Assembly: GCA_003598055.1 (NCBI GenBank)
Contig: QZKI01000121.1
Span: 7,102-71,101, forward strand
Direction: 5' to 3'
From: Candidatus Abyssobacteria bacterium SURF_17
GTDB taxonomy: Bacteria > Abyssobacteria > SURF-5
Length of the DNA stretch: 64,000 bases
Positions within the stretch are counted from its first letter, which is position 1, and every line of letters starts with the position of its first letter. The notes beneath the pieces were generated by a model. The model saw nothing but the letters and a program-made list of their open reading frames with translations, did no database searches and had not been told where the DNA came from. This document shows, piece by piece, positions 34,440-47,662 of the stretch. The translations under genes and the position numbers were made by a program.

Positions 34440-37400
34440 TCAGAAATATAGGTGTCGCTCGCCGTGCTCAATCATGCCGACGCGCTTCTCGGTTTCGGCG
34501 CGGGTCATGGAAGAGGAAATCTGGTTCGAAGCCTTCCGTATCAGCGCCAGGCCTGCCTCCCGGACTTCGGAGCCTGCGTAGTCTTCCAGATACTCCTTGA
34601 AGGTCAATATCGCATTTGGCAGACAGTAATCCTTAATGAGGCCGGGTTTCGCAAGGTTCATGAAGTGGGCTCCCGTTCGTCCCAGCTTGTAGCAGGCAGT
34701 GCAGAAGGAAGGAATATGTCCCCTATTCACAAGCGGAAGAATGGCGTCGTCGAGATTTCGCGCCCCGTCCACACCTCTGCTCGAATCTATTCCCAACTCA
34801 CCATCAACTCGGCTGCTGGGGTCGGTTCGACTGCCGGCGCTCACCTGCGAAACGCCGAGCGTGAACATTTCGGCTTGCATTTCCGGCGGTGCTTGCGTGC
34901 TTGTAACAATTCCCGCATACGGGACAGCCAGCCGCAGCACGGCTATGACCCTCTTGAAATCTGAATCTGTGAGTGATGGAACAGATTGTTCTGTAGATGA
35001 GGAGTCCTTTGCAGGCTTGAGCCGAAACAAACCGAGCGTGCGCGGCCCTATGCCGTATACGTGTTCGAGATGCCGAATGTGTTGGAGAAGCGCAAGAACC
35101 TCGAAACGATAATCATAAAGCCCGAATAGCAGGCTGATTCCGCTATCACTGATACCACCTTCGAACGCGTGGCCGATGGCATTCAGCCTCCGGGTGTATT
35201 CCGCCGAGGAATCTTCCCCGTGGAGTTTCTTGAACGTGGGCACATGATAGGTTTCCTGAAAGAGCTGGTATGCTGCTATCTTTGACGCTTTCAGTTGCCG
35301 GAATTCCTTCACCGCAAACGGAGGAGCATTCAGGCTAACGTGGCGGATTTCTCCCTCTTCCCCGTGAGTGGACCAAATGGTCGCAATCGACTGCAGGAGA
35401 TAATCGAGTCCCCCATGGGGAACGCCATTGCCGGCAACGAGTAGAACGCGCTTATGTCCTCGCCTCTCAATCAGGCGCACTTCCTCAGCAATTTCCCCTT
35501 GCGACAACGCCTTGGCCTGCTTCTTTCTATCGCTCACGCGAAGGAAGCAATCTTTACAGTCTTCCCGGCAAAAGCTCGATACATATAAGGGAGCGAAAAC
35601 CACGAGTCTATTCCCGAAAATTGACTTTTTGACTTCGTGCGCTGCCTGAAACATCTCCTCCGTGACCGCAGGGCTCGTGCATTGGAGCAGAACCGCTGCT
35701 TCTTCCGTGTGCAGCCCTTTAAGCTCGCGAGCCTTCTTGATGACCTCCTTCACGCGGTCATCCCCCACCCTCGCCGTTGAATCAATATAGTTCTGTATCA
35801 CCCCCTCATCAATGAAGGCCTTCGGCGCCCCGCCGATTTCGATTCCGACCGATTTCTGGGCGCCTTCCTGTGGCGCGACCGGAAGATGCACCGTAAAAGT
35901 GCTGCCGTGTTCCTCCTTGCTCTCCACCGTTATTCTGCCGCCGTGCTGGCTGACGATTTCCTTCACAATCGACAATCCCAGGCCTGTTCCGATTTTCTCC
36001 ATGTCCCGCGCACTTTGAGTCCGAAAGAACTCGTTGAAAATCCGCGGAATGTCCGCCTGCGGAATTCCAATCCCTGTATCGCTTACTTCTATCTTTACGG
36101 ATGTGCTGTCATCGCAGGTACAGAGCATCTTGACGCGCCCGCCCGTCGGAGTGTACTTTATCGCGTTGGAAATCAGATTCTCGAACATCTGTTGAATCAT
36201 TTCCTCGTCGCACTTGATGCCGGGCACGGCATCAGGAATGACAGTCTCAAAGCAAATTCCCTTTTTCTCCGCCTCTGTTTGAAATGTCCGCTGCACCCCT
36301 CTCATCAGCGTAGATACGTCGACAACTTTATGCACTACACTCCGCTTGTCTCTTCTCTGTGCATACAACACCATAAGCTCGTTTATCATGGAGAGCATAT
36401 TACGAATGGGGTATTCAATCCGGCGCAGATAGGACAACTGCCGGTCGTTCAAGTCGCCCAGATACTTCCCTTGCACGACATCAAGGATGCTTATCGCTGC
36501 TGCCAAAGGCGCGCGCAGATTGTGGGTGACGCGCATCATGAACCTCGACCGCTCCTTCACCATTTCCTCGATTTCTTCGTAATAGCGCGCGTTCTCGAGC
36601 GCTATGGCCACAAGCCCGGCGGCCAGCCTGAAGAAATCCACGTCATCACTGCCAAACTCCTCGGCACGCTTTGAATACGCTCCCAGAATTCCGGTGACTC
36701 GGTCCTCCACGGTCAGAGGCACAAACAAAACCGACCTTACCTGCGCTGCTTTCAGATCTTCTCCGAACTGGAACAACTCCCGCTGCGTGACGTGCCCCGT
36801 TACAAACGGGTCCCCCTCGATAATCCTCCGGTTCAAAGGGCTCTTGGCAACCTCGATGACCTTGTCCCTTATTAGCTCACTTGGCAAACCGTATGCAGCG
36901 GCATAGCGAAGTACTTTGCCGTCGTCACTGAGCAATTTGACTGACATTCCTTGCACGTTCATCACTGCAGCAAGTTCCGAAGTGGTGATGTTCATAAGGT
37001 GCTCAAGTCGCTGGTTCGAGACGATGGCTTGGGTCATCACGTAGAGACTTCTGAGCTTGTTGTTGAGGGTCGTCAATTCCTCCGACAGTTCCGCAAGGCT
37101 TACAATCCGCTTCCTGAGCATGCTCATGATAGCGGTTGTTGAAAATGCGGTTATGAACACTGTGGTCGTGAAGAAAATTAAGTTGACCATCATGTGGAAT
37201 GGCGACTGAATGAGATTGAGGGTTCTCCCGTGGAAGATGAGTGAGTGATGCGAAATCCAGCCGAGATATTCTCCAAGGGAAACGAGGGCCATGCCGGCAG
37301 CCGCCAGCGCTGCAAAACCGTATGCCGAGCGCGGACGCAGGAGAATGGACGCGAAGATGATGTGGAAGATGAAGAAGAGTGTGAGCGGACTCGAAACGCC

Positions 37401-37781
37401 ACCCGTGAAATGAATGAGCAGGAACATCGCCGCGTAGTCGAGCGTCACCTGGCAATAGGTGAACCGCTGAATATAGTCGGTTTGTTCCACCGGCACGGTC
37501 GCCAAGGAGCGCCCCCACCGCGCGAAGACCATGTTGTAGGCCAAGATGAACGCTGCAATACCGAAAAGTGCGCCCGCCGAAAATTCCACCCCGACGAGCC
37601 GACCCACGACTGTTCCCGTTGCAATGCAAGGTGGAACCCACCATCTGAGCCGAACAAACCAGACGGTTCGCTCCTTCAGCTCGCCGAGGATGATCCGCTT
37701 GCGCTTATTGACCTCCTCAGGCAGGTTCAGCACTCCCACACTGTTCGGCATCTGGCTCACTTTCTGCTCCTGTATCCTCAA
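34440..37781 (-). CDS. hydG: Sensor histidine kinase (multi-TM + GAF + HisKA + HATPase_c) translationally fused to [FeFe]-hydrogenase maturase HydG (radical SAM tyrosine lyase)
   Basis: Single 1113-codon ORF. H-box VTHNLRAPL and G-boxes VSDTGIGIP / GTGLGLSIV. Then a linker APQEGAQKSVGIEIGGAP with no in-frame start codon. HydG part has KAFIDEG..., radical-SAM CREDCKDC (Cx3Cx2C) and C-terminal CTACYKLGRTG-x-C (Cx2Cx22C). Confidence 0.8.
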   Translation of the reverse strand: MRIQEQKVSQMPNSVGVLNLPEEVNKRKRIILGELKERTVWFVRLRWWVPPCIATGTVVGRLVGVEFSAGALFGIAAFILAYNMVFARWGRSLATVPVEQTDYIQRFTYCQVTLDYAAMFLLIHFTGGVSSPLTLFFIFHIIFASILLRPRSAYGFAALAAAGMALVSLGEYLGWISHHSLIFHGRTLNLIQSPFHMMVNLIFFTTTVFITAFSTTAIMSMLRKRIVSLAELSEELTTLNNKLRSLYVMTQAIVSNQRLEHLMNITTSELAAVMNVQGMSVKLLSDDGKVLRYAAAYGLPSELIRDKVIEVAKSPLNRRIIEGDPFVTGHVTQRELFQFGEDLKAAQVRSVLFVPLTVEDRVTGILGAYSKRAEEFGSDDVDFFRLAAGLVAIALENARYYEEIEEMVKERSRFMMRVTHNLRAPLAAAISILDVVQGKYLGDLNDRQLSYLRRIEYPIRNMLSMINELMVLYAQRRDKRSVVHKVVDVSTLMRGVQRTFQTEAEKKGICFETVIPDAVPGIKCDEEMIQQMFENLISNAIKYTPTGGRVKMLCTCDDSTSVKIEVSDTGIGIPQADIPRIFNEFFRTQSARDMEKIGTGLGLSIVKEIVSQHGGRITVESKEEHGSTFTVHLPVAPQEGAQKSVGIEIGGAPKAFIDEGVIQNYIDSTARVGDDRVKEVIKKARELKGLHTEEAAVLLQCTSPAVTEEMFQAAHEVKKSIFGNRLVVFAPLYVSSFCREDCKDCFLRVSDRKKQAKALSQGEIAEEVRLIERRGHKRVLLVAGNGVPHGGLDYLLQSIATIWSTHGEEGEIRHVSLNAPPFAVKEFRQLKASKIAAYQLFQETYHVPTFKKLHGEDSSAEYTRRLNAIGHAFEGGISDSGISLLFGLYDYRFEVLALLQHIRHLEHVYGIGPRTLGLFRLKPAKDSSSTEQSVPSLTDSDFKRVIAVLRLAVPYAGIVTSTQAPPEMQAEMFTLGVSQVSAGSRTDPSSRVDGELGIDSSRGVDGARNLDDAILPLVNRGHIPSFCTACYKLGRTGAHFMNLAKPGLIKDYCLPNAILTFKEYLEDYAGSEVREAGLALIRKASNQISSSMTRAETEKRVGMIEHGERHLYF

Positions 37782-37787
37782 CTGCGG

Positions 37788-38192
37788 TCAGCTCTTCCGC
37801 AAAATCCCCTGTATCTTTTCCAGGAGTTTCTTCGTATCCACCGGCTTTTCAAACAACCAGTCGGCGGGCCACTCCTCACCCAAGATTCGCTGAAAGTTTC
37901 CCGGTCCCTCCATGCGCACCTTGTCCAGAAAACAGGTAATCATGATGATGGGCGTATTGGCAAATTCGGGATTGTTCCGAAGCATGCATGCCACGTCAAA
38001 ACCTTCGGTATCAGTTGCCATCATCAGGTCCATGAGTATGAGGTCCGGCCGCCATTCCTTCAGCATTTCCCGAGCCTCGCTCCCATTCTTGGCGGTTTGA
38101 ACCGCGTACCCGTTCTTTTCAAGGACATCGCGGAGGATTCGCCTCATGTCCGAATCGTCGTCCACCACAAAGATTTCGCCCTTGCGCGTCAT
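37788..38192 (-). CDS. Single-domain response regulator (CheY-like receiver)
   Basis: Receiver motifs VVDDDSD, LILMDLMM (phospho-Asp), IIMIT and EKP. Sits 6 nt upstream of the kinase-HydG gene and 33 nt downstream of hydA. Confidence 0.85.
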   Translation of the reverse strand: MTRKGEIFVVDDDSDMRRILRDVLEKNGYAVQTAKNGSEAREMLKEWRPDLILMDLMMATDTEGFDVACMLRNNPEFANTPIIMITCFLDKVRMEGPGNFQRILGEEWPADWLFEKPVDTKKLLEKIQGILRKS

Positions 38193-38225: not shown

Positions 38226-39995
38226 CTACAGGCCGCGTTCCACATACTGCGTGTGAAGCAGCTTATGCGAGAGATGGCCTAAGGGCTTTCCCAGAAATTG
38301 TTCATAAATCTGGACTATTTCAGGGTTCTCGTGAGACTTCCGCAATTTCTTGCCTTCATCCTCCTTGTAGATGGCTCGTATCCTTGCCATGCGCACCTCA
38401 TTGTCCGTCATCCGCGGCTGGCCTCCGCCTCCGATGCATCCGCCGGGGCACGTCATGATTTCGACGAAATGGTAGCTGCCCTCGCCGGATTTGATACGCT
38501 CAATCACCTTTCTGGCATTCCCCAGGCCGTGAGCGACCGCCACCTTGAGCGTAGCTCCGTCGAGGAACGACCATTCGGGAACTGCACGCGGGATCTCGAT
38601 TGATGCTTCCTTCACACCTTCCAGCCCGCTAATAGGAGCGACGTGGAGGTTCTCGAACGGCAGCGGCGTCCCAGTCACGATCTCATATGCCGTCCTGAGT
38701 GCGGCCTCCATCACGCCTCCCGTGTTGGCGAATATGTCCGCGGCTCCCGACGACATGCCTATCGGCGAGTCCATCTTGTCGTCCGGCAGTGAGACGAAGT
38801 CGATGCCGGATTGCTTAATCATTCGGCCGAGTTCTCGGGTGGTCAAGACAACATCGACATCCCTGACACCGCTGCTGTGCATCTCCGGCCTCTGGGCCTC
38901 AAACTTCTTGGCCGTGCACGGCATGACTGACACCACAAAAATGTCCTTCGGCTCTTTGTTCAACATTTTCGCATAGTAAGTCTTCGCGACCGCGCCAAAC
39001 ATCTGTTGCGGAGACTTGCACGTGGAGATGTTCGGCAGCAGCTCAGGATAGAAGTGTTCTACAAACTTGATCCACCCGGGAGAACAACTCGTAAACTGGG
39101 GAAGAGCAACTTCCTTCTTCTCCACAAGCGCCGCTTTAAGCCGCATCAGAAGCTCGGTCCCTTCCTCTATGATGGTCAGGTCAGCGGTAAAGTTGGTGTC
39201 AAACACGCCGTCAAAGCCCAGCCGCCGCAGCGCCGAGACCATCTTTCCCGTCACAAGCGTTCCGGGCGGATATCCGAAGCATTCTCCCAGCGCAGCCCTG
39301 ATTGCCGGGGCTGTCTGCACGATTACGTGCTTGCTCGGATCATCAAGCGCAGCCCATGCTTCGCTAATCTGGTCCTTCTCGCTTATGGCGCCCACCGGAC
39401 ATACTGCGGCGCATTGGCCGCATTGGACGCAGACCACTTCGGCAAGCTCATTCGTGAATGCAGGGCCGATGACGGATTCAAACCCGCGGTATTGGGGAAA
39501 CAGGGCTCCCACGCCTTGGACTTGGCCGCAGACGGTTACGCAACGACGGCACTTGATGCATTTGGCCGAATCGCGCATAAGCGCCGGCGTGCTCGCATCA
39601 ACTACCCGAGCACTTTTTTCGCCGGGATAGGTGATGTCGCTTATGCCGAGCTCACGGGCAAGAGCCTGCAATTCACAGTCATCGTTCCGGTTGCAGGTTT
39701 GGCAGTCGCCGTTATGCTCTGATAGGAGAAGCTCTACCACGGTGCGCCTTGCTTCGCGCACCCGGGCCGTATTCGTGAACACCTTCATGCCGTCCAAGAC
39801 CGGCGTCACACAGGAAGCCACGAGAACGCGTGAGCCCTGCACTTCTACGAGACACACCCGACATGCGCCTATTGCTTGAATATCTTTCAGGTAGCACAAG
39901 GTCGGCACTCTTACTCCAATCTGGCGGACGGCCTCCAGAATGGTTGTTCCCTCGGGCACCTGCACACTCATACCATCAATGGTTAGTTGAGGCAT
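38226..39995 (-). CDS. hydA: [FeFe]-hydrogenase catalytic subunit HydA (group A, NuoG-like N-terminus)
   Basis: RBS ggaagggg then ATG at 39995. N-terminal 2Fe-2S, a His-ligated 4Fe-4S (HNGDCQTCNRNDDC) and two ferredoxin 4Fe-4S clusters. H-cluster motifs L2 MPCTAKKFE and L3 EIMTCPGGCIGGGGQP. L1 reads TSCSPGW. Confidence 0.9.
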   Translation of the reverse strand: MPQLTIDGMSVQVPEGTTILEAVRQIGVRVPTLCYLKDIQAIGACRVCLVEVQGSRVLVASCVTPVLDGMKVFTNTARVREARRTVVELLLSEHNGDCQTCNRNDDCELQALARELGISDITYPGEKSARVVDASTPALMRDSAKCIKCRRCVTVCGQVQGVGALFPQYRGFESVIGPAFTNELAEVVCVQCGQCAAVCPVGAISEKDQISEAWAALDDPSKHVIVQTAPAIRAALGECFGYPPGTLVTGKMVSALRRLGFDGVFDTNFTADLTIIEEGTELLMRLKAALVEKKEVALPQFTSCSPGWIKFVEHFYPELLPNISTCKSPQQMFGAVAKTYYAKMLNKEPKDIFVVSVMPCTAKKFEAQRPEMHSSGVRDVDVVLTTRELGRMIKQSGIDFVSLPDDKMDSPIGMSSGAADIFANTGGVMEAALRTAYEIVTGTPLPFENLHVAPISGLEGVKEASIEIPRAVPEWSFLDGATLKVAVAHGLGNARKVIERIKSGEGSYHFVEIMTCPGGCIGGGGQPRMTDNEVRMARIRAIYKEDEGKKLRKSHENPEIVQIYEQFLGKPLGHLSHKLLHTQYVERGL

Positions 39996-40014
39996 TCCAT
40001 TCCACCCCTTCCGC

Positions 40015-43000
40015 TCAGCGCTCGTCTCGATAGTCGCAGCGCAGACACCGTTTCGCTTCCCTCTGGGCCACATTCTGCCGCCATGGCGTTTCCACCTCGA
40101 GGAAATTACTCCTCCTTTTTGCGACCGGAATCATCTGGGCCTTTGCACGCGGATATTGCACAGGGTCGGCCTCCGGGTCAAAGAAGGTGTCGATTGTTTG
40201 TTCCTTCCTCCAGAACGCCTCTCCCTCGCCCTCGAGAAACTCGTGAATACCCACAGCGGCCTTCTCGCCGCCTCCTATCGCGCTTGTTACCGTAGCGGGG
40301 CCGGTTGCCGCATCGCCTCCCGCGAAAACCCATTCAACGGATGTCTGTCCGGTCACCGGGTTCATGTGAAGCACATTTCCGGCAAATTTGAGGCTGATTC
40401 CGTCGCATATCTCCTTGCCATCCAGCGCTTGCCCGATGGCCGCGATTACCTGGTCGGCATTCACCACAAAGTCGCTGTCCTCACACCGCTCCGGACGCCG
40501 CCTCCCCGAGCGGTCATAGTCTCCTAGCTTCATGCGACAGCATTTCACGCCGACGACATGGCCGTTACTGGAGAGAATCTCGACAGGTGCAACAAGGGTT
40601 CTGATACGAAGCCCCTCTCGTTCTGCTTCTTCAATCTCCTCTTCATATGCAGGCATCTCAGCCCGCGTTCGGCGATACAGGATCGTCACCGCCCCGGCGC
40701 CCAGCCGGAGGGCTGTTCGTGCAGCATCAACTGCCGCGTTTCCGCCGCCGATGACGACCACTTCCTTGCCGACCGATACCGAGCCATTTAGGTTGTGGTC
40801 ATGCAAGAAGCGCATTGCGTCGCTCACGCCCTCGACCTTCTCGCCGGGAATGCCTAGGTCCAGACCTCGCGGAGTGCCTACGCCCACAAAGACCGCCTTG
40901 TAGCCATCCGCTTTCAAGCTCTTCAAGGTGAAATCCCTTCCAAGCTTCATTCCGGTTTCTATATCTACGCCGAGGTGCTCGATCATTCTAACTTCGCGCG
41001 TTATTACGTCTCGAGGCAGACGATAAGCCGGGATTCCCCAGCGAAGCATGCCTCCCGGCTGGCTCTCGGCCTCGAAGACCTTCGGACGATACCCCAGCCG
41101 TGCGAGGAAATATGCGCAGGAAAGCCCGGCAGGCCCGGCTCCGATTATTGCGACCTTGTGTCGTGCGTTTCGTTCGCTTTCCCGTATCTCCGGAAGCTGT
41201 ACCGTCACTTCCTGTTCAACCATGAACCGTTTGAGGCCGCGGATTGAAACCGACTCGTCCACGGTCGAGCGTCGGCATTTGCTCTCGCACGGATGGAAGC
41301 ATACTCGCGCGCATACGGACGCAAACGGGTTTCGATTTCGGTGAAGCTTCAACGCCTCGGCGTACCGGCCTTCGGAAATCAAGGCCACATATCCGGGTAC
41401 ATCCACGCCTGCGGGGCACGCATTCTGACATGGCGCCCGCACGAGCGACTCACAGACGCCCGCGGGACAATGTTTTTCCCTGATATGTGCGTTATACTCG
41501 TCGCGGAAATGCCTGATTGTGGACAACACCGGGTTCGGTCCGGTCTGCCCCAACCCGCAGAGCGCGGTATCTTTTATCTTGTTGCCCAGGTCGATAAGCT
41601 TTTCGACGTCGCCCTCTTGCCCGTTGCCCTCGCAAATCCGGTTCACAATCTCCAGCATCCGCTTCGTGCCCACCCGACACGGAGGGCACTTGCCACATGA
41701 TTCGTCCTGAATGAAGTCAAGGAAATAGCGAGCCATGTCCACCATGCACGTATCCTCATCCATGACGATGAGGCCGCCCGACCCCATGATCGCTCCCAAA
41801 TCGGTGAGCGATTCATAATCGACGGGCACATTGAGATGTTCCTTTGGAATGCACCCACCGGAAGGTCCGCCCATCTGCGCGGCCTTGAACTTTTTGCCGC
41901 CAGGAATTCCTCCGCCAACCTCATATATAATCCTGCCCAGCGACGAGCCAATGGGGACTTCAACCAGGCCGGTGTTGTTGACCGTTCCCGCAAGCGCAAA
42001 CACCTTGGTCCCTTTGCTCTTCTCGGTGCCGAACGAAGCGTACCATTCCGCTCCTTTCATGATGATCGCGGGTATGTTGGCATAGGTCTCCACATTGTTG
42101 AGCAGGCTCGGCTTTCCCCATAATCCTTTTTGGGCAGGGAATGGGGGCCGCGGCCTCGGCTCGCCTCGATTCCCTTCGATGGAGGTCATGAGCGCGGTTT
42201 CCTCGCCACATACGAACGCTCCCGACCCCATCCGAATCTCCAAATCGAAATCAAAGCCGGTCCCCATGATGTTCTTCCCGATGAGCCCGTATTGCCTGGC
42301 TTGATCGAGCGCCTTGCCCAGCCTCTCGACGGCAAGCGGATATTCGGCTCTCACGTACACATAGCCTTGGCTCGATCCGATTGCATACGCCGCTATTGCC
42401 ATGGCCTCGATGATGCTGTGGGGGTCGCCTTCGAGCACGCTGCGGTCCATAAACGCCCCCGGGTCACCCTCGTCACCGTTGCAGATTACGTATTTAACAT
42501 CTCCTTTGGACTGGCGGGTCACGCGCCATTTCCTGCCGGTCGGAAATCCTGCTCCCCCTCTGCCGCGCAGACCGGACTTCTCCACGACGTCGATGACCTG
42601 TTCAGGCGTCATCCCGGTTAGCACCTTGGCGAGTGCCTGATAGCCGTCTCGCGCGATGTATTCGTCAATCCGCAGCGGGTCTATGATTCCGCAATTGCGA
42701 AGAACGATCTTCTCCTGCTCGCGGAAGAAGCTGATGTCCTGAAGCCTGGCGACTCCTTGAGCTGTTGCAGGAGCCCTATGCACCAGCCGCTCAACTACGC
42801 GACCCTTCAGGAAATGCTCTTCAACGATGACCGCCGCGTCTTCCGGTTTCAGATTTTGGTAAAACACGCCGTCCGGGTAAACCACTGCCACCGGACCGAC
42901 CGCGCATGGTCCCAGGCATCCCGTTTCAATGATTCTTACTTCGCCCGTGAGACCATGCTTGCGTAAGGGATCCTGCATCGCCGCACCGACCTCGAGCGAG

Positions 43001-43059
43001 CCCGAGGCAACGCATCCAGCGCCAGCGCACAGAAGGAAGTGAGTCCTGGCGTTCTCCAT
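40015..43059 (-). CDS. hydB: Hydrogenase NAD(P)-linked flavoprotein: HydB (NuoF-like, FMN/NADH, 4Fe-4S) fused to a C-terminal GltD/NfnB-like FAD/NADPH oxidoreductase domain
   Basis: RBS aaggagg then ATG at 43059. NuoF motifs GRGGAGFPTGRKW, CNGDEGDPGAFMDR and ESCGKCPPCRVG. Then two 4Fe-4S Cys clusters, FAD motif VAIIGAGPAGLSCAYFL and NADPH motif VVVIGGGNAAVDAART. 1014 aa. Confidence 0.85.
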   Translation of the reverse strand: MENARTHFLLCAGAGCVASGSLEVGAAMQDPLRKHGLTGEVRIIETGCLGPCAVGPVAVVYPDGVFYQNLKPEDAAVIVEEHFLKGRVVERLVHRAPATAQGVARLQDISFFREQEKIVLRNCGIIDPLRIDEYIARDGYQALAKVLTGMTPEQVIDVVEKSGLRGRGGAGFPTGRKWRVTRQSKGDVKYVICNGDEGDPGAFMDRSVLEGDPHSIIEAMAIAAYAIGSSQGYVYVRAEYPLAVERLGKALDQARQYGLIGKNIMGTGFDFDLEIRMGSGAFVCGEETALMTSIEGNRGEPRPRPPFPAQKGLWGKPSLLNNVETYANIPAIIMKGAEWYASFGTEKSKGTKVFALAGTVNNTGLVEVPIGSSLGRIIYEVGGGIPGGKKFKAAQMGGPSGGCIPKEHLNVPVDYESLTDLGAIMGSGGLIVMDEDTCMVDMARYFLDFIQDESCGKCPPCRVGTKRMLEIVNRICEGNGQEGDVEKLIDLGNKIKDTALCGLGQTGPNPVLSTIRHFRDEYNAHIREKHCPAGVCESLVRAPCQNACPAGVDVPGYVALISEGRYAEALKLHRNRNPFASVCARVCFHPCESKCRRSTVDESVSIRGLKRFMVEQEVTVQLPEIRESERNARHKVAIIGAGPAGLSCAYFLARLGYRPKVFEAESQPGGMLRWGIPAYRLPRDVITREVRMIEHLGVDIETGMKLGRDFTLKSLKADGYKAVFVGVGTPRGLDLGIPGEKVEGVSDAMRFLHDHNLNGSVSVGKEVVVIGGGNAAVDAARTALRLGAGAVTILYRRTRAEMPAYEEEIEEAEREGLRIRTLVAPVEILSSNGHVVGVKCCRMKLGDYDRSGRRRPERCEDSDFVVNADQVIAAIGQALDGKEICDGISLKFAGNVLHMNPVTGQTSVEWVFAGGDAATGPATVTSAIGGGEKAAVGIHEFLEGEGEAFWRKEQTIDTFFDPEADPVQYPRAKAQMIPVAKRRSNFLEVETPWRQNVAQREAKRCLRCDYRDER

Positions 43060-43064
43060 CGGTC

Positions 43065-43454
43065 TCAAGCCTCCTTAGATGATTGACTGCTTACCATGTA
43101 CTCAACGAGTGGCTGATTCTCCAGCATGTGCCTGGTCACAATCTCATGCACCTTCGACCGGTCAAGCCTCGCATAACAGAATTCCGTGCCTGATGCGTCG
43201 GTCAAAGTGAACATGGGCTCCTGGTCGCAAAGCCCCATGCATCCTGATAATCGGACAGTCACGCTTTCAACCCCTGCCAGGCGCAATTCCTCAATCACTT
43301 GCGTCAGGATGTCGCGCGCTCCGGCGGCGATTCCGCACGTTCCCATGTGCACCACGATGCGCATGTCTTTTTCCCCTGTGCGCAGCTCAATGTCGGACTT
43401 GGCTTGGTCACGGAGCGCGTTAAGGTCTTTGACGCTCTTAATTTTCTTCTCCAT
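43065..43454 (-). CDS. Thioredoxin-like [2Fe-2S] ferredoxin (HndB-like hydrogenase subunit)
   Basis: 129 aa with a four-Cys pattern (HMGTCGIAAGA...SGCMGLCDQEP) typical of the 2Fe-2S thioredoxin-like ferredoxin of HndABCD-type hydrogenases. Confidence 0.7.
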   Translation of the reverse strand: MEKKIKSVKDLNALRDQAKSDIELRTGEKDMRIVVHMGTCGIAAGARDILTQVIEELRLAGVESVTVRLSGCMGLCDQEPMFTLTDASGTEFCYARLDRSKVHEIVTRHMLENQPLVEYMVSSQSSKEA

Positions 43455-43456
43455 TT

Positions 43457-43987
43457 CTATGCCCCCTTCTCAGCGACGGCGCCCTGGTTCCTGTACTCAT
43501 CAAGGAGCTCATGGACTTTGAGCGGTTTCACGCGCTGATGCACTTCGTTATCGATGGTAATTGTCGGCGCCAGTCCACACGCCCCGAAACAGCGGGCGAC
43601 CTCCAAGGAAAACATCTTATCGGGCGTCGTCTCGCCCACATCGATGCCCAGGTCTCGTTTTATCGAGTCGAGCACCCGCTTCCCGCCTCGAACGTAGCAC
43701 GCTGTCCCCAAACACGTGCGGATGAGGTGCTTTCCCCTCGGGACGGTGGAGAAAAAGGAATAAAATCCGACAACTCCGGCAACCTCGCTATACGATTTGT
43801 TCAATCCCCGGCTGATGCGCTTGAGGGCCGATTCCGGCAGGTAGCCAAAGATGCCTTGCGCAATCTGAAGGACGGGAATGAGTGCGCCCGGCTTTTCCCG
43901 ATATTCCTGAATCACTTCATCGAGTCTGGCCAGAAGCTCCTGTTCCGACACTTCCTCACAGGCACATCCCAGTTTTTCTGGTGCCAT
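43457..43987 (-). CDS. hydC: NuoE-like [2Fe-2S] subunit (HydC/HndA)
   Basis: CLGTACYVRGG ... CFGACGLAP motifs of the NuoE 24-kDa subunit family. Confidence 0.85.
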   Translation of the reverse strand: MAPEKLGCACEEVSEQELLARLDEVIQEYREKPGALIPVLQIAQGIFGYLPESALKRISRGLNKSYSEVAGVVGFYSFFSTVPRGKHLIRTCLGTACYVRGGKRVLDSIKRDLGIDVGETTPDKMFSLEVARCFGACGLAPTITIDNEVHQRVKPLKVHELLDEYRNQGAVAEKGA

Positions 43988-44019: not shown

Positions 44020-44565
44020 CTACACTGACACTGCAAGCGTTACCATAGCGTTTTTGATCTCTTCCGAAATCAGTCTGGCAACCGCCAGGCCACGGAACTC
44101 ATTGAAGTTCAGCTTGCGTGCCACTTCCGACACACTCACGGCACTTTCACGCCCATCCACCTTCAACTTGCATCGAATGTCTATATCCGGATTCGTGCAT
44201 GCCACCGAAGCAAGCGTTGCGGCCAAGTCTCCCAAAGGACTCCTGTCAATATGGCTCAGCCGCATGGTCACCGTGACTACCAACCCCCCAAGCGGGGATT
44301 TCCCCAGCGTCAAGCTTCCGTTTGCTCGCTCGGCAGCCGCGCGGAAGAGGCTCAAGCCCAATCCCACCCGCTTACCCGATTTGGTGGTATAAAAGGGGTT
44401 CACAGCAACGTTCGGGGATACTTGAAGTCCTCGCCCGTTATCCTCAACGCTGATTTTCAGGAGGTCTTCCGCGTGGTCTTCTTCGACCGTTACCGAGACA
44501 ACTGAGACCCCTGCCCGGATGGAGTTTTCGATAAGGTCAAGAATATGCAGTGACAGCTCACGCAC
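44020..44565 (-). CDS. GHKL/HATPase_c-type ATP-binding regulatory protein (anti-sigma-factor / Ser-kinase-like); start approximate
   Basis: LSLHILDLIENSIRAG ... VEDNGRGL ... GLGLSL motifs. The tracked start overlaps the PHP gene, so a later GTG start is preferred. Confidence 0.65.
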   Translation of the reverse strand: MRELSLHILDLIENSIRAGVSVVSVTVEEDHAEDLLKISVEDNGRGLQVSPNVAVNPFYTTKSGKRVGLGLSLFRAAAERANGSLTLGKSPLGGLVVTVTMRLSHIDRSPLGDLAATLASVACTNPDIDIRCKLKVDGRESAVSVSEVARKLNFNEFRGLAVARLISEEIKNAMVTLAVSV

Positions 44566-45292
44566 AGCAGCACCTTCTTCCACCAATTCCTTTTATCGCC
44601 TGGACAAGCTCATCGAATGTGGGTTCAGCCACTTCGAGTATCGTGGCGCACCTGCCTATCTCGAAGAGAAAATGACTGTCGGAAGAACTGACTACCGACA
44701 GCCCGTGAAAATGCTCACTGCCGAAGGGAGGAACAGCATTGGGTTTCAAGAAAATCTCGACGGCATCAAATCCCACGTCAGGGGGAAACAGGCCAAGCTG
44801 GCTCATAACGCTGAAGGACGGCCTGTTCACATGTGCAGCAATTGCAAGACCGTCATGTCTCTTTATGAGATTCACGGTTTCCGAAAGAGTGAGGGCGGAC
44901 GATGCAGCAAGCATCTTGGATTCAGTTCCCACAACCCGTCCTTTCGCGTCCATCAGGAGTTGCTGGCCGAACCTCTTCGCTCGCTCGCTCAGAGGAGGGA
45001 GATTTGCCCGAACCGTCTCGGCCGCGGAACAGGCTTTCGCAGCATCGGGAAACAGACCAACCACATGAATATCCTCGACCGTCGTTACTTCCATTCCCGC
45101 AACCGCAGCGATAGCTGTTCCCGCCGCCTCCTGCATGGATGCAGTGTTTCCTGCGGCGTTATGGTCGCAAATCGCAATCATGTGAAGCCCCTTCCGAACA
45201 GCCTCCTCCACAATCGCAGGAGGGCTCATCTCCTCCATCGCGCACGGAGACAGTGCGGAATGAATATGCAAGTCTGCCTTGAACCGTTTCAC
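44558..45292 (-). CDS. PHP-domain (polymerase/histidinol-phosphatase-like) metal-dependent phosphoesterase
   Basis: Begins with DLHIHSALSPC ... ICDHN, the PHP His/Asp metal motifs. Confidence 0.8.
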   Translation of the reverse strand: MKRFKADLHIHSALSPCAMEEMSPPAIVEEAVRKGLHMIAICDHNAAGNTASMQEAAGTAIAAVAGMEVTTVEDIHVVGLFPDAAKACSAAETVRANLPPLSERAKRFGQQLLMDAKGRVVGTESKMLAASSALTLSETVNLIKRHDGLAIAAHVNRPSFSVMSQLGLFPPDVGFDAVEIFLKPNAVPPFGSEHFHGLSVVSSSDSHFLFEIGRCATILEVAEPTFDELVQAIKGIGGRRCCCA

Positions 45293-45642
45293 GCATGCTT
45301 CCCTCTCAGCCCCAAGGCGTAGAGCTTGCCCACGGTATTGAACGTTGACTCCTCGGTCGCATAGAGCACGAGGCCCTCTTCAATCGCTTTTTGCCTGACC
45401 GATTCTTCAGGCACCATGCCTCCGGCAAAAATCACCGCTTTGAGCTCAGCATGAACACACACCGCAATGACGTTGAGATGCACCTGAATGGTGACCAGCA
45501 GCCCTCCTTGTGGGGCATTGGCCAGCACGTCGCTCAGCAGGTCGCACGAATGACCGCTCCAGACTTCCGCCTGTTGGTCGGCTTCCTTCTCCGGCGTGAG
45601 ATTTCTCAGACTTAGTTGTTGCGCTATGTCCGCGAGTTTCAT
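45289..45642 (-). CDS. DRTGG-domain protein
   Basis: About 117 aa of DRTGG-like sequence (GLLVTIQVHLNVIAVCV...IFAGGM). Translationally coupled on both sides. Confidence 0.65.
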   Translation of the reverse strand: MKLADIAQQLSLRNLTPEKEADQQAEVWSGHSCDLLSDVLANAPQGGLLVTIQVHLNVIAVCVHAELKAVIFAGGMVPEESVRQKAIEEGLVLYATEESTFNTVGKLYALGLRGKHA

Positions 45643-47216
45643 GGCGCTCTCTCCGCATCGTCAATGACATACGGACATGCCTTCTTCCGTGCTCTGCCCA
45701 TCACCACATCCTCGGCAAGCGCGTCGCAGGTCGGCGCGCCGCACAGACCGCAATCTTTGCCCGGAAGGCTTTTGGCGAGTTCCTCCAACTCAGACAGCTT
45801 TTCAATGGCCTGTGAGACATCGGCGCTGAGCCCCATGCCCGTTCGTGGCTTAAGCGGGGCCGTCCGGCGAATTGCTTTTGCTGCAATCGCATGTTCAACT
45901 TGGGTCCGGCTCCACCGATACCTGGCGACGAAGGGCTGCTCCGTGAGAAGCGGCGAGCCATAACACCCGCACTCGCATGCGTACAATTCCAAAATCCGCA
46001 CGTCGCGCAGCCGGCCGTTCTCCAGCTTCTCGAGCACGTCAATAACGTGCCTCATGCCACATGCTTCGAGGATGCCGTTGAGTGCGCTTCCGTTTGCCGG
46101 CGGAATGATGCGAACTTGCTGCAGCCGTTCCTCAACTCCTTCCTCCATGACAACCCGTTGAACCACGTGGCGAAATGTGGCGGGCATCATAACTTCGACA
46201 TTCCTCGAGAAAGAACCGGCGGTGAGTGCGGTAAGTTGACAAGGGCAACAAGCAACGAAGACAACCTTCTGTCCGTTGAACTGGTTCCTGGCTGCTTCAA
46301 AAGGGGATAAGAAGGGAGCTATGACTTCAATGAGAGACTGAAACCGCAATCGTATGAGATTCACAATGGCCGGACACACGGGCGAAATCACGGGCAATTG
46401 CCTTGCTTCTTCGGCAGCATACCTGATGACGGCGCTTCGCAACGCGTTCTCCCACGCTTCGGTGAGGTAGACCTCCCTGAAAGCGAGTTTCCGTATTCCT
46501 GCAAGCACGCGGCTGGGATATATTGCCGCACTGAATTGCGCCAGAAAATGGGGTGGGACTAACAACACCTTCTCTTCAAAAGGCTGAGCCTCACTCATGG
46601 CGCTCGCTGTCGTGAGCGCACCACTTTTGCATACTCCAATACATGCCGCGCAGTCGATGCAGAGTTCTCTCAGTATCTGTGGCTTGCCGTCGTAGACTCT
46701 CAGCGCCTTCGGTGCGCAAACCCTCACACAGTAGAGACATTGGCGACAATTCGTGGAAATCGCTCGAATCGAGTTGTGCCCTGTCTCCGAAGACTCCTGG
46801 CTCCTGAAGCAAACCGTATACAGCACCCTGGTTCCCTGGCCTACGGTGGAGTCTATCTCGAACACATCGGAGTTCTTCTTCATATTCGGCAGGCCCAGAC
46901 CGGCTCCATAGCCCAACTGCCTCGCCGCAGGCGAAGCCGTGGAGAAGCCTTCCTGCATTGCCTGCTCAATGTCGGGAATGCCGGGACCCTCGTCCCTCAC
47001 TTCAACCTCTATCTCCGTGGAATCAATGATCGCGCGCATGCTGCCCCTGTATGCGTGTATCACGACATTCATCTCGGCCTCGAAGGCGGCGATGATGGCA
47101 CGGCGCATATCGGCTGGGTCCATATTGATTTTTTTCAGAAGCCGCTTCAGCGCACTCGTTGCCGCGCCTGCCTTTTTGAAATCACCGCCCTCGATCATGC
47201 TAAGCGTGACTCTCAT
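45639..47216 (-). CDS. HydS-like putative sensory [FeFe]-hydrogenase paralogue with N-terminal GHKL Ser-kinase domain, 2x[4Fe-4S] ferredoxin domain, degenerate H-cluster domain and C-terminal Cys cluster
   Basis: N-terminal anti-sigma Ser-kinase pattern (NVVIHAYRG...EVRDEGPGIP...GYGAGLGL). Ferredoxin motifs CRQCLYCVRVCAP and CIDCAACIGVC. H-cluster-like L1 ISPVCPAIV, L2 VACCPCQ and L3 ELYACECGCYGSPL. C-terminal CGLCGAPTC-x16-C. Confidence 0.75.
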   Translation of the reverse strand: MRVTLSMIEGGDFKKAGAATSALKRLLKKINMDPADMRRAIIAAFEAEMNVVIHAYRGSMRAIIDSTEIEVEVRDEGPGIPDIEQAMQEGFSTASPAARQLGYGAGLGLPNMKKNSDVFEIDSTVGQGTRVLYTVCFRSQESSETGHNSIRAISTNCRQCLYCVRVCAPKALRVYDGKPQILRELCIDCAACIGVCKSGALTTASAMSEAQPFEEKVLLVPPHFLAQFSAAIYPSRVLAGIRKLAFREVYLTEAWENALRSAVIRYAAEEARQLPVISPVCPAIVNLIRLRFQSLIEVIAPFLSPFEAARNQFNGQKVVFVACCPCQLTALTAGSFSRNVEVMMPATFRHVVQRVVMEEGVEERLQQVRIIPPANGSALNGILEACGMRHVIDVLEKLENGRLRDVRILELYACECGCYGSPLLTEQPFVARYRWSRTQVEHAIAAKAIRRTAPLKPRTGMGLSADVSQAIEKLSELEELAKSLPGKDCGLCGAPTCDALAEDVVMGRARKKACPYVIDDAERAP

Positions 47217-47568
47217 GCGTGATCCGCGCTCCCCGGCCCAATAACCGGCTCAAACGGTCCGCCGTTTCCGTCAGTCCGACAGATGAGACCATGAGAATCG
47301 TTCCGTTTTCCGTGGATGCGTTCAGCAGCTCTTGCTCCGGCACGTAGCCATTGAGAAGGCAAATCGCCGGCACTTCCAGAAGTCCTGCTACGCGAAAGAT
47401 GTGAGGATTGAGTATGTTGCTTACGACCAGCGTCCTCTCGCAGCACCGTTCGGCGAGAAGTTCGCTAATCTTGTCGTCAGCGTAGAATCGCTCAATCTCT
47501 GCGCTGAGTGGGCCTGAATAGGTCAGAATTTTGGCCCCGATTTTTTTGGCTAGTTCGTAGAGTCTCAC
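47200..47568 (-). CDS. DRTGG-like domain protein; GTG start inferred downstream of the sigma54 promoter
   Basis: The tracked ORF starts at ATG 47652, but a sigma54 promoter overlaps that position. An in-frame GTG at 47568 gives a 122-aa DRTGG-sized protein. Confidence 0.5.
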   Translation of the reverse strand: MRLYELAKKIGAKILTYSGPLSAEIERFYADDKISELLAERCCERTLVVSNILNPHIFRVAGLLEVPAICLLNGYVPEQELLNASTENGTILMVSSVGLTETADRLSRLLGRGARITHESHA

Positions 47569-47662
47569 ACTCGCGCTCGCACGGTTGGAGTCATTGTCGA
47601 GGGCCCCCGTCCGCTGTCCGCAAATGCAATCCCCATGCCGACGACGTTTCATGAGGTGGGCT

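Follow-up and report, generated by a model that had tools for sequence, protein, structure and literature searches.

A HydB flavoprotein with a StnC/NfnA-like module in place of its ferredoxin-like domain, in an [FeFe]-hydrogenase of Candidatus Abyssobacteria SURF_17 that probably links hydrogen to NADH and NADPH

The hydrogenase operon of Candidatus Abyssobacteria bacterium SURF_17 raises the question of which electron carriers an [FeFe]-hydrogenase might serve when its HydB flavoprotein runs on, within a single polypeptide, into a second flavin module of the GltD/NfnB kind. The window analyzed here is a stretch of 64,000 nucleotides from contig QZKI01000121.1 (GCA_003598055.1), and all coordinates refer to it. 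The fused ORF occupies 40015..43059 on the minus strand (stop codon included) and encodes 1014 amino acids, with an AAGGAGG Shine-Dalgarno sequence, a strong ribosome-binding site, 8 nt 5′ of its ATG (43059) and the stop of the gene before it falling between the two. Residues 1-541 represent a HydB/BfuB flavoprotein with an N-terminal 2Fe-2S site, an FMN/NADH site, a 4Fe-4S site and a Zn-hinge motif, and residues 541-1014 make up a module resembling GltD and NfnB, in which two 4Fe-4S clusters are accompanied by FAD and a site of the NADPH type. An earlier note on this DNA had read the domains in this way and had placed the module on HydB rather than HydA; both points were borne out, with Pfam returning 2Fe-2S_thioredx, Complex1_51K, NADH_4Fe-4S, Fer4_20 and Pyr_redox_2, and the motif strings quoted there were all found (GRGGAGFPTGRKW at residues 166-178, IIGAGPAGLSCAYFL at 638-652 and VIGGGNAAVDAART at 769-782). 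As to whether two separate genes had been merged, a possibility raised in the same note, the fusion is real: it is uninterrupted in more than 120 protein clusters and at 69 independent genome loci from more than 15 phyla, including two cultured species. An artefact, i.e., an adjacent hydB and gltD-like gene joined by assembly or sequencing error, might be suspected given that the source, to which the protein has a 100% match, is a metagenome-assembled genome and that another ORF of the window, HK-HydG, may be a merger of that kind, but is vanishingly improbable against full-length proteins of ~1015 aa in more than 120 clusters (70-87% identity), unbroken ORFs in 58 full-length loci including those of the isolates Pontiella sulfatireligans F21 and Pelotomaculum terephthalicicum JT, the invariance of both C536 and C544 with just seven residues between them, and the finding that the seemingly stand-alone modules P0121 and P0122 are miscalled fragments of fused genes.

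The fused gene is the third of a four-gene Bfu-type [FeFe]-hydrogenase operon in the order HydC, HndB-like, HydB, HydA, all on the same strand. HydC/BfuC (43457..43987, minus strand) is NuoE-like, matching Pfam 2Fe-2S_thioredx at 161 bits and the NCBIfam HoxE/NuoE families, with C92, C97, C133 and C137 as the cysteines of its C1 [2Fe-2S] cluster. The HndB-like small subunit (BfuD; 43065..43454, minus strand) is paralogous to the N-terminal domain of BfuB and, among solved structures, best matches the N-termini of StnB and Csac NfnB; it falls below the Pfam 2Fe-2S_thioredx threshold (22.6 vs 24.8 bits) and, of its cysteines C40, C72, C76 and C93, provides just three of the four canonical cluster positions, so that a 2Fe-2S cluster in this protein is uncertain. 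The pairing of HydC with an HndB-like 2Fe-2S protein noted earlier thus stands for the genes, and is doubtful for the second cluster. HydA/BfuA (38226..39998, minus strand) is an M3-type catalytic subunit (898 bits with NCBIfam FeFe_hydrog_A6, whose cut-off is 765) with the Pfam domains Fer2_4, NADH-G_4Fe-4S_3, Fer4_7, Fe_hyd_lg_C and Fe_hyd_SSU and the motifs P1 TSCSPGW, P2 MPCTAK and P3 EIMTCPGGCIGG. Along with HydA and HydC, the HndB-like gene has a counterpart in HndABCD of Desulfovibrio fructosovorans.

The HydB part was compared with the structures of canonical electron-bifurcating HydABC from T. maritima (7P5H), A. woodii (7Q4V) and T. kivui (8A6T), with which the SURF_17 enzyme has HydA, HydC and HydB up to the Zn hinge in common (59% identity to A. 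woodii HydB; 814 bits to 7q4v_B). The thioredoxin-like [2Fe-2S] domain, or B5 site (residues 1-100; 42760..43059, minus strand; Pfam 2Fe-2S_thioredx at residues 5-81), has the ligands C11, C16, C48 and C52, invariant in 119-120 of 120 homologues. The NuoF-type FMN/NAD(H) core with SLBB and the B1 [4Fe-4S] cluster follows at residues 120-526 (41482..42702, minus strand), where Pfam placed Complex1_51K at residues 159-330 (2.4e-46, 158 bits), SLBB at 354-402 and NADH_4Fe-4S at 441-525 (5.5e-33, 113 bits), the B1 ligands being C455, C458, C461 and C501. By the criteria of PMC7311640, this core carries bifurcating-type signatures in common with canonical HydB, namely the invariant A202, M204, F307 and GGPSG (397-401). 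Among 67 fused B, all have M at position 204 and 66 have A at position 202, the same residues as in canonical HydB (11/11), whereas HydB of the same data set lacking the C-terminal domain (CTD) has mostly T and K there; GGPSG is not discriminating here, since 6 of 10 CTD-less HydB carry it too. The core runs into the hinge H-x5-CPAGVC (residues 525-536; 41452..41487, minus strand), with H525, C531 and C536 invariant; it corresponds to the Zn or 'B2' site of Bfu enzymes, and a Zn here is a putative assignment transferred from PMC11829005.

Directly after this hinge the canonical ferredoxin-like domain would start, and it is at this point that the fused protein departs from other HydB proteins. 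Alignments to solved HydB chains end at residue 541-544 and leave the last ~55 residues of those chains unmatched, and neither Pfam nor these alignments revealed in the fused protein a Fer4 dicluster, the usual C-terminal 2x[4Fe-4S] of HydB. Canonical HydB in related loci reads '...CPAGVCKALxSYxIxxxKCxGCxxCxxxCP...' and enters a 2x CxxCxxCxxxC domain, where the fused protein reads '...CPAGVCESLVRAPCQNACPAGVDVPGY' and enters a flavoprotein module of 475 aa. The ferredoxin-like B3/B4 domain has therefore been swapped for the module, not supplemented by it, contrary to the initial description of a usual HydB that continues into an extra module. The two ferredoxin-like Cys clusters of that description do exist, but they belong to the Fer4_20 domain of the GltD-like module, and the usual pair is gone.

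The module opens with this Fer4_20 (DPD_II) domain holding two [4Fe-4S] clusters (residues 541-620; 41200..41439, minus strand; Pfam Fer4_20 at residues 533-618, 4.3e-19, 69 bits), continues with an FAD Rossmann fold and an NADP(H)-type Rossmann fold (residues 630-945; 40225..41172, minus strand; Pyr_redox_2 at residues 635-930, 6.2e-28, 98.5 bits), and closes with a permuted tail, RRSNFLEV...EAKRCLRC (residues 975-1014; 40018..40137, minus strand). On alignment to Csac NfnA (C108, C147, C151, K170), the FAD-proximal cluster was assigned to C548, C587, C591 and K610, and the distal cluster would be held by C544 and C595 together with the tail cysteines C1005 and C1008; all of these are invariant among the 120 homologues compared, and C583 is an additional invariant Cys outside the assigned ligands. 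The tail gives the CxxC pair that is N-terminal in NfnB, GltD and DPD: it aligns with residues 13-43 of T. maritima NfnB and 16-46 of P. furiosus NfnL, and also with the closing part of the modules of Tsib NfnA, Csac NfnA and Sov StnC, and a CxxC lies within the last 30 aa in 55 of 58 fused homologues. The FAD motif is GAGPAG (640-645), and the nucleotide motif GGGNAA (771-776) with Y795-R796-R797 is identical to that of NADPH-specific relatives, the YRR motif being present in 206-207 of 208 related modules, including NADPH-specific StnC, NfnA and NfnB; the site is thus predicted to prefer NADP(H). In an AlphaFold model, residues 630-945 are the confident part (pLDDT 80-94), and the whole model (mean pLDDT 70, pTM 0.45) is too poor to position the module against the core.

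To which branch of this family the module belongs bears on how many bifurcating flavins the enzyme could have. The Nfn-Bfu structures compared were Sporomusa ovata StnABC (8OH5), C. saccharolyticus NfnABC (9BOV) and T. sibiricus NfnABC (9N5U), and the best solved matches were Csac NfnA 101-570 (402 bits), Sov StnC (367) and Tsib NfnA (359), ahead of T. maritima NfnB (301), GltD (209) and DPD (200). In percent identity the NfnA-type modules (40-44%) are just slightly above NfnB/NfnL (38-40%). K610 corresponds to K170 of StnC/NfnA; all 120 close homologues and all 58 fused loci have K here, and both NfnB structures have E. The circular permutation of the RCLxC segment is common to the module, StnC and NfnA. 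Judged by these features, the module is of the StnC/NfnA (Nfn-Bfu) type and not of the NfnB type that had been claimed. From structures and mutagenesis, the StnC/NfnA FAD is the chain terminus, a non-bifurcating NADPH site that forms a neutral semiquinone, and K170 mutants lose activity (PMC10482914; PMC11829005). The claim of two candidate bifurcating flavin sites, in which an NfnB-like FAD in addition to FMN would send NADPH electrons partly to the [4Fe-4S] pair and partly to another exit, for instance the 2Fe-2S site of the N-terminal domain or of the HndB-like protein, is very unlikely on this basis. It draws on the homology to NfnB (301 bits; TM 0.78 and rmsd 3.3 Å in a Foldseek comparison giving TM 0.76-0.78 and 3.2-3.3 Å over NfnL/NfnB), on two thioredoxin-like domains without known role (B5 and BfuD), and on the kept flavin-adjoining Arg, R680; this last is not discriminating because StnC has the same Arg, yet ~6 Å from N5 (PMC10482914). 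NfnB/NfnL of NfnAB (NfnSL; 4YLF, 5JCA) resembles the module in its FAD and NADPH motifs including YRR and in having two [4Fe-4S] clusters, but has an N-terminal RCLxC and the Glu that is held to make its proximal cluster low-potential, where the module has an invariant Lys and the permutation of proteins whose FAD ends the chain. Moreover, NfnB requires an NfnA/NfnS partner (2Fe-2S and a second FAD), none of which was found in the operon by a Pfam scan of the window genes, and BfuD is missing from many fused-B loci and may bind Zn.

A HydB in which an NADPH-binding flavin module replaces the ferredoxin-docking domain makes NADH and NADPH together the probable partners of hydrogen in this enzyme. 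With a probability of about 0.5, we propose a complex that couples H2 to two nucleotides, NAD(H) at FMN and NADP(H) at FAD, free of ferredoxin and with FMN as the sole (con)furcation site; an H2-linked NAD(H)/NADP(H) complex, as the earlier note had suggested, is thus also the reading that we infer as best. H2 would be oxidized or formed at the H-cluster of HydA, whose clusters would connect to B1 and to FMN, where NAD(H) binds. The second electron stream normally runs over the mobile [2Fe-2S] C1 of HydC to B3/B4 and ferredoxin; in Tsib and Csac NfnABC, C1 swings over and ferredoxin is then reduced at B3/B4 (PMC12018979; PMC11829005). In the fused enzyme, C1 would instead pass electrons to the distal and then to the Lys-ligated proximal [4Fe-4S] of the module, a presumed contact, and from there to FAD, which would exchange hydride with NADP(H). 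The net reaction would be 2 H2 + NAD+ + NADP+ <-> NADH + NADPH + 2 H+ without ferredoxin, with the FMN/B1/C1 'flavobicluster' as the only (con)furcating center and FAD as a plain two-electron/one-electron converter; cofactor occupancy, coupling and direction are likewise predictions. The module is seven times bigger than the domain it replaces, and therefore may not move like the canonical C-terminal domain. It is rather unlikely that ferredoxin is still a substrate, docked, for example, at HydA's N-terminal clusters or between the module and HydC, which would make the enzyme a hydrogenase with Nfn-like transhydrogenase chemistry on H2, ferredoxin, NAD and NADP. The M3-type N-terminus of HydA does resemble ferredoxin-dependent monomeric hydrogenases, and Zheng & Huang treat these clusters together with Rnf, but B3/B4 is gone here, the site that in the one complex solved experimentally (PMC12018979) is 12.8 Å away from the cluster of ferredoxin, and the Pfam scan of the window genes found no ferredoxin gene in the operon.

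An enzyme that does not bifurcate at all, with FMN (for NADH) and FAD (for NADPH) as independent doors onto one Fe-S wire to the H-cluster, so that either nucleotide alone could drive or accept electrons with no obligate coupling, is possible but unlikely. S. wolfei and S. aciditrophicus have HydB without B3/B4 that does not bifurcate (PMC7311640; PMC11406978), and the location of the module in the complex, left unfixed by the AlphaFold model, would allow two doors; however, fused B has the bifurcating-type A202, M204 and GGPSG in place of the mostly non-bifurcating T/K of CTD-less B, and C1 of HydC is kept and invariant, as are the Zn hinge and B5. We calculated from the potentials in PMC9304861 that NADH (-280 mV) and NADPH (-380 mV) average -330 mV, in equilibrium with ~145 Pa H2, and that NADH alone equilibrates with ~3 Pa H2, so that NADH/NADPH coupling would pay off in low-H2 habitats. 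In uptake, obligate coupling is not thermodynamically required, because high H2 reduces NAD+ and NADP+ downhill, oxidation with either nucleotide being exergonic.

Among known systems, the Nfn-Bfu transhydrogenases share with the fused enzyme its BC core (residues 14-542 are matched by StnB and Csac NfnB at ~690 bits) and, with Lys ligand and permuted RCLxC tail, its type of NADPH-FAD-2x[4Fe-4S] module. There, however, BfuA carries the module, inserted behind its A1 cluster and feeding the mid-potential branch, and BfuB retains B3/B4 and reduces ferredoxin; in SURF_17 it is BfuB that carries the module, where B3/B4 would otherwise be, and BfuA is a genuine hydrogenase. In HydDB group A2, the 'glutamate synthase-linked' [FeFe]-hydrogenases, a GltD-like NAD(P)H module is likewise associated, as a separate protein partner of HydA and without NuoE/NuoF-like subunits, whereas here it lies within HydB of an A3-type operon. 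Two apparent A2-like relatives were rejected as gene-calling artefacts. The closest counterpart is sub-type I BfuABC(D) of Hydrogenedentota, for which both the architecture and the idea of a second bifurcating FAD are already in print (Zheng & Huang 2024, mSystems, PMC11406978), so that neither is new here. It has an identical BfuB, with B3/B4 replaced by DPD_II (Fer4_20) and an FAD/NAD(P) domain, the gene order C-(D)-B-A, an M3a HydA with Ser in P1 and a neighboring HATPase-bearing group-C1-like sensor, all as in SURF_17. No structural difference separates the two, and the host here is a sister lineage, Ca. Abyssubacteria, not named in the main text of that paper (PMC11406978). The SURF_17 fused HydB is thus a further member of a design catalogued in 2024 but uncharacterized, a search of the literature on the HydB-GltD fusion having found no biochemical or structural study of any member. 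PMC11406978 favors a possible second bifurcating FAD, whereas a terminal FAD of the StnC type is what the Lys ligand and the permutation point to.

Across the 69 loci from more than 15 phyla, fused B always comes after a HydC-like gene and precedes HydA, a (seleno)formate dehydrogenase, or a small Fe-S subunit with a GltB-like protein, and so behaves as an exchangeable core across partner enzymes. In SURF_17, putative regulatory genes lie upstream of the hydrogenase cluster (44020..47652, minus strand; Pfam): a 150-aa ORF without family, a sensor-like protein (group C1-like) combining HATPase, Fer4, a partial H-domain and FeS, a DRTGG protein, a PHP protein and a HATPase_c protein. The same genes occur in the same order 5′ of the fused-B hydrogenases in loci L002-L007, L016 and L018. 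The downstream genes (34440..38192, minus strand; Pfam) comprise a response regulator following HydA (37788-38192) and a GAF histidine kinase joined in frame to a HydG maturase (34440-37781), which may be a merger of two genes; its HydG part matches TIGR03955 at 409 bits over residues 655-1112.

The fused HydB is encoded by a single ORF of 1014 aa on the reverse strand at 40015-43059, whose ATG start codon at 43059 is preceded 8 nt upstream by an AAGGAGG ribosome-binding site, with the stop codon of the preceding gene falling between the two. Pfam analysis placed, in this order, 2Fe-2S_thioredx (residues 5-81), Complex1_51K (residues 159-330, 158 bits), SLBB (residues 354-402), NADH_4Fe-4S (residues 441-525, 113 bits), Fer4_20 (residues 533-618) and Pyr_redox_2 (residues 635-930). 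This domain order, i.e., a NuoF-type core followed by Fer4_20 and Pyr_redox_2, confirmed the fused make-up that an earlier note had read from the sequence, and the three motif strings picked out there were located at residues 166-178, 638-652 and 769-782. It matches a deposited protein of 'Candidatus Abyssobacteria bacterium SURF_17', named 'NuoF', at 100%, and most of its homologues are likewise deposited as 'NADH-quinone oxidoreductase subunit NuoF'. Identity with NuoF of complex I was rejected, and metabolic reconstructions are misled by the name, because the score against TIGR01959 (498 bits) lies below the equivalog cut-off of 559 and the gene belongs to a hydrogenase operon. Both partners of the fused HydB, BfuC with its C1 [2Fe-2S] site and BfuA, are present in this operon as a NuoE-like HydC (43457-43987, reverse strand; 161 bits) carrying the four C1 cysteines and an M3-type HydA (38226-39998, reverse strand) that scored 898 bits against the NCBIfam model FeFe_hydrog_A6. 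The operon also encodes a small HndB-like protein (BfuD; 43065-43454, reverse strand), which among solved structures is matched best by the N-terminal domains of StnB and of NfnB from C. saccharolyticus (Csac). Of the four cysteines that canonically bind the cluster in thioredoxin-like domains it retains three (C40, C72, C76), and it has a stray C93. The HndB-like gene proposed earlier stands. Its label as a '2Fe-2S protein' is uncertain, since the equivalent Csac site carries Zn and not a 2Fe-2S cluster (PMC11829005) and one canonical cysteine is missing.

The N-terminal core of the fused HydB contains the NuoF-type FMN/NAD(H) domain and the B1 [4Fe-4S] site, and it matched A. woodii HydB with 814 bits. 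The ligands of B1 (C455, C458, C461, C501), the cysteines of the B5 site (C11, C16, C48, C52) and the residues of the B2/Zn hinge (H525, C531, C536), all sites predicted from sequence, are invariant. Neither the Zn-hinge motif nor any B5 cysteine has been lost, and HydC keeps its C1 cysteines as well. According to Losey et al. (2020, PMC7311640), bifurcating HydB proteins have A or E at position 232 and M at position 234 of the Thermotoga maritima protein, which belong to the NADH site, F at position 367 near FMN, and a GGPSG motif. The fused HydB has A202, M204, F307 and GGPSG at 397-401, invariant in the close family, where the match to T. maritima numbering was judged by motif and not by alignment. 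Among the related loci, position 202 is A in 66/67 fused and 11/11 canonical HydB proteins and position 204 is M in 67/67 and 11/11, respectively, whereas eight of the 10 CTD-less HydB proteins in the data set carry 'non-bifurcating' T/K residues there (T at 202 in 8/10; K or S at 204 in 8/10). F307 and GGPSG separate the HydB types less well, with F found in 5/10 and GGPSG in 6/10 of the CTD-less proteins. Judged against this control, the fused core retains the residues predicted for a bifurcating-type NADH site.

The alignments of the fused HydB to all solved HydB/BfuB chains end at residue 541-544, and what remains unmatched in those chains is their final ~55 residues, i.e., the ferredoxin-like B3/B4 domain; Pfam found no Fer4 dicluster domain in the fused HydB. 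Canonical HydB of related loci reads '...KKCPAGVCKALxSYxIxxxKCxGCxxCxxxCP...CxKCGxCxxxC', with two CxxCxxCxxxC motifs, and at the equivalent point the fused HydB reads '...EKHCPAGVCESLVRAPCQNACPAGVDVPGY...', with Fer4_20 in place of the dicluster. Because the HydB alignments end there and because of this comparison with canonical HydB, the Fer4_20 clusters can be placed where B3/B4 usually lie. The module is a replacement of B3/B4 and not an addition, which revises the earlier picture of a usual HydB continuing into a further module. Cryo-EM of NfnABC showed that the mobile C1 of the C subunit brings a low-potential electron to B3/B4, and current Bfu enzyme structures assign ferredoxin reduction to this domain of BfuB (PMC12018979, PMC11829005). 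The replacement matters because B3/B4 is the point to which C1 delivers that electron in NfnABC; exactly the ferredoxin-reducing domain has been swapped for an NADPH-flavin module.

When residues 541-1012 were compared with solved structures, the highest score was obtained with the 'NfnB-like' insert of BfuA from C. saccharolyticus (NfnA 101-570, 402 bits), followed by Sporomusa ovata StnC (367 bits), T. sibiricus NfnA (359 bits), T. maritima NfnB (301 bits), P. furiosus NfnL (279 bits), GltD (209 bits) and DPD (200 bits). The final 40 residues of the module (RRSNFLEV...EAKRCLRC) align with the N-terminus of NfnB/NfnL, directly before the 'PC...CP' motif, and the same tail also aligns with the module ends of NfnA and StnC; the module therefore shares the circular permutation of the Nfn-Bfu enzymes. 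By alignment, K610 is the equivalent of K170 of Csac NfnA and S. ovata StnC, where NfnB has Glu, and it is invariant in 120/120 close homologues and at 58/58 fused loci. This lysine is the predicted fourth ligand of the FAD-proximal cluster. By analogy with the published ligands of cluster A7 (PMC11829005), the proximal [4Fe-4S] cluster was assigned to C548, C587, C591 and K610, and we infer C544, C595, C1005 and C1008 as ligands of the distal [4Fe-4S] cluster; all residues so assigned are invariant. The Lys ligand and the circular permutation agree with the bit-score ranking, in which StnC and NfnA stand above NfnB, and by these two sequence features the module is classified as StnC/NfnA type. 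This type takes the place of the NfnB/GltD-like one assigned in the earlier note. In a rough neighbour-joining tree, which has no bootstrap support and in which NfnB is the outgroup, 52/58 fused modules form one clade inside a Lys-type group that also contains BfuA-type modules. Specificity for NADP(H) is predicted from just two motifs, GGGNAA and YRR, common to NADPH-specific relatives. The location of the module differs from that in StnC/NfnA, where it is inserted in BfuA between A1 and the other A clusters, whereas in the fused HydB it forms the C-terminus of BfuB; Pfam found no NfnB-like insert in the HydA of the window operon.

Identity with NfnB/NfnL was rejected on account of the Lys rather than Glu ligand and the permuted order, which lacks the N-terminal CxxC topology, and no gene for an NfnA-like partner was found among the operon genes scanned. 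GltD was likewise rejected (TIGR01317, 191 bits against a cut-off of 448; TIGR01318, 292 against 483), and the window operon has no Glu_synthase gene, which is present in more distant fused-B loci. An arginine near flavin N5 was dropped as a bifurcation marker, since R680 is conserved in 207/208 sequences across all groups and is therefore uninformative on bifurcation. An AlphaFold2 model of the full fused HydB with 47 close homologues reached a mean pLDDT of 70 and a pTM of 0.45, with every cluster-binding stretch below 50 pLDDT and only the Rossmann part reliable. Foldseek found no solved chain spanning both halves of the fused HydB (maximum TMq 0.39) and otherwise gave the same outcome as sequence.

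Beyond domains, homology and conservation, we infer a Bfu-type [FeFe]-hydrogenase complex that uses NADP(H) in place of ferredoxin and has one (con)furcating centre, a reading to which we give a probability of roughly 0.5. NAD(H) would react at the FMN as before, the C1 branch would end in two [4Fe-4S] clusters, a StnC-type FAD and NADP(H) instead of ferredoxin, and the FMN/B1/C1 flavobicluster would be the sole (con)furcating centre, so that the predicted reaction is 2 H2 + NAD+ + NADP+ <-> NADH + NADPH + 2 H+. With the physiological potentials of Schut et al. (PMC9304861), i.e., -280 mV for NADH, -380 mV for NADPH and -414 mV for H2, the NADH/NADPH pair averages -330 mV and is calculated to be in equilibrium with ~145 Pa H2; the corresponding values are ~3 Pa when NADH acts alone and ~0.15 bar when it is combined with ferredoxin. 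The SURF_17 genome comes from the deep subsurface (Abyssubacteria genome paper), and by this calculated equilibrium the enzyme would suit low-H2 habitats such as this one. If the reading holds, H2 would be tied to both pyridine-nucleotide pools without ferredoxin, NADH-driven H2 evolution would be possible to about 100 Pa H2 rather than a few Pa, and the enzyme would offer a test case for the low-potential branch of the flavobicluster in which the acceptor is soluble, takes two electrons and is readily assayed.

Among the alternatives, the NADH and NADPH sites might be two independent doors for nucleotides, without coupling; we consider this unlikely. A slightly smaller chance is given to continued use of ferredoxin at another site of the complex, the domain to which its reduction is assigned having been replaced. 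It is improbable that the module FAD bifurcates as in NfnB and forms another such centre in series with the FMN/B1/C1 flavobicluster, as the two candidate bifurcating flavins of the earlier note would have it. The other outlet would then be the N-terminal or HndB-like thioredoxin-fold site, and each hydrogenase would hold two mechanistically different bifurcation sites. The StnC/NfnA type of the module, with its Lys ligand and common permutation, argues against two centres, as does the dispensability of BfuD; in StnC/NfnA the FAD lies at the chain end, forms a neutral semiquinone and is non-bifurcating according to structures and mutagenesis, and activity is abolished by K170A and K170C (PMC10482914, PMC11829005).

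The fused gene is widespread. More than 120 clusters at the 90% identity level, from Planctomycetota, Phycisphaerae, Hydrogenedentes and other lineages, match the fused HydB at 70-87% identity across the full ~1015 aa, and a scan of one genome per species found the same fused gene at 69 loci in more than 15 phyla, with hosts in Nitrospiraceae, Spirochaetaceae, Thermoleophilia, Verrucomicrobiota, Acidobacteria, Atribacteria, Chloroflexi and Desulfobacterota. Two of the 69 loci are from isolates, Pontiella sulfatireligans F21 and Pelotomaculum terephthalicicum JT, and biochemistry is feasible because these cultured hosts exist. Together with the spacing of the invariant C536 and C544, only seven residues apart, this distribution in practice excludes a merger of two adjacent genes during assembly, which the earlier note had raised against itself. 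The routine mis-annotation of so widespread a subunit as 'NuoF' has consequences for reconstructing the metabolism of subsurface and gut anaerobes.

The gene context was counted from an explicit listing of the loci. Nearly all 69 loci have a HydC-like gene ahead of the fused B, and in about 36 the fused B is followed by HydA. The remaining loci fall into three groups. At two loci (L026, 8001-14791; L046, 7896-13761) a gene for a molybdopterin formate dehydrogenase comes after the fused B, an arrangement that resembles a formate-linked version of the hydrogenase; in L026 this dehydrogenase gene is split by an in-frame stop that would fit selenocysteine, and the next gene encodes a FocA formate channel. 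At three loci (L053, 7893-13386; L062, 7881-13370; L082, 3840-11312) a more distant fused B, of 45-50% identity, is accompanied by a NuoE-like gene and followed by genes for a small Fer2_4/Fer4 subunit and a protein with a Glu_synthase domain, a set that may encode an unusual NAD(P)H-glutamate-synthase-like complex. Genes for glutamine synthetase and glutamate dehydrogenase are also close by at L082. In a third group (L022, L023, L031, L032 and L025) the fused B is followed by a second HydC, a CTD-less HydB that terminates directly after the CPxxVC hinge, and a single HydA, so that two distinct flavoprotein cores may share one hydrogenase subunit. Canonical BfuBC pairs with various catalytic partners (PMC9304861), and, judged by its own varied partners, the fused B acts as an alternative 'core' in the same manner. 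That this is a ferredoxin-independent Bfu core which confurcates NADH and NADPH and serves several kinds of partner (hydrogenase, formate dehydrogenase, GltB-like) has, in our judgement, about an even chance. A2-like ancestry was dropped, as the 'stand-alone' modules that were the nearest hits outside the family, publicly called as GltD-like proteins of 489 aa (P0121, 55% identity, adjoining a HydA 66% identical to that of the window) and 494 aa (P0122), proved by six-frame analysis to be pieces of fused BfuB genes. The former comes from a fused B with a frameshift near nt 1380 (L081, 3-2949) and the latter from an intact but under-called fused ORF of 1070 aa (L082, 4273-7482). Such miscalls could inflate counts of 'GltD-linked' hydrogenases.

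Zheng and Huang (mSystems 2024, PMC11406978) described the same BfuB, with B3/B4 replaced by DPD_II and an FAD/NAD(P) domain, as 'sub-type I BfuABC(D)' of Hydrogenedentota with relatives in several phyla, and postulated a possible second bifurcating FAD centre without biochemistry; the idea of the earlier note was therefore already in print. The window has the B3/B4 replacement, the C-(D)-B-A cluster and the M3a HydA of this sub-type. The strict Bfu definition of Schut et al. (2022, PMC9304861) has B1-B5 all conserved, and the fused HydB lacks one defining feature, B3/B4; we would class it as a published variant within the Bfu family. The literature searched on the fusion, its family and the host lineage yielded no study, biochemical or structural, of a BfuB-GltD protein, no mention of the fusion in Schut 2022 (PMC9304861), Losey 2020 (PMC7311640), Liang 2019 or single-cell genomics papers, and nothing on the SURF_17 hydrogenase operon in the Abyssubacteria genome paper. 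To the published description the present analysis adds the StnC/NfnA type of the module as read from its Lys ligand and permutation, the bifurcating-type NADH-site residues as judged by the control, and the pairing of the same core with formate dehydrogenase and GltB-like partners.

Other features of the operon were also observed. Motif P1 of HydA is TSCSPGW (residues 303-309; 39072-39092, reverse strand), in which Ser replaces the proton-relay Cys of prototypical hydrogenases (TSCCP). A P1 Ser (TSCSP or SSCSP) occurs in 32/43 HydA proteins adjoining fused HydB and 7/10 adjoining plain HydB in the related loci, and it is common in four of the five sub-types (Zheng and Huang, PMC11406978). In a single ORF of 1113 aa at 34440-37781 on the reverse strand, a histidine kinase with a GAF domain (residues 1-645) runs into a full-length HydG, the H-cluster maturase (residues 655-1112; TIGR03955, 409 bits, cut-off 312), with no in-frame stop or ATG at the junction; at L037 and L024 two different ORFs encode the kinase and the HydG-like protein, and the joined ORF is either a true sensor-maturase fusion or a MAG indel. 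A putative regulatory block at 44020-47652 on the reverse strand precedes hydC and comprises a familyless 150-aa ORF, a HATPase + Fer4 + partial H-domain + FeS sensor-like gene, and DRTGG, PHP and HATPase_c genes. The block is found in the same order at eight loci (L002-L007, L016 and L018), in Spirochaetaceae and Thermoleophilia MAGs, and this conserved order suggests that the whole ~11-gene cluster was transferred.
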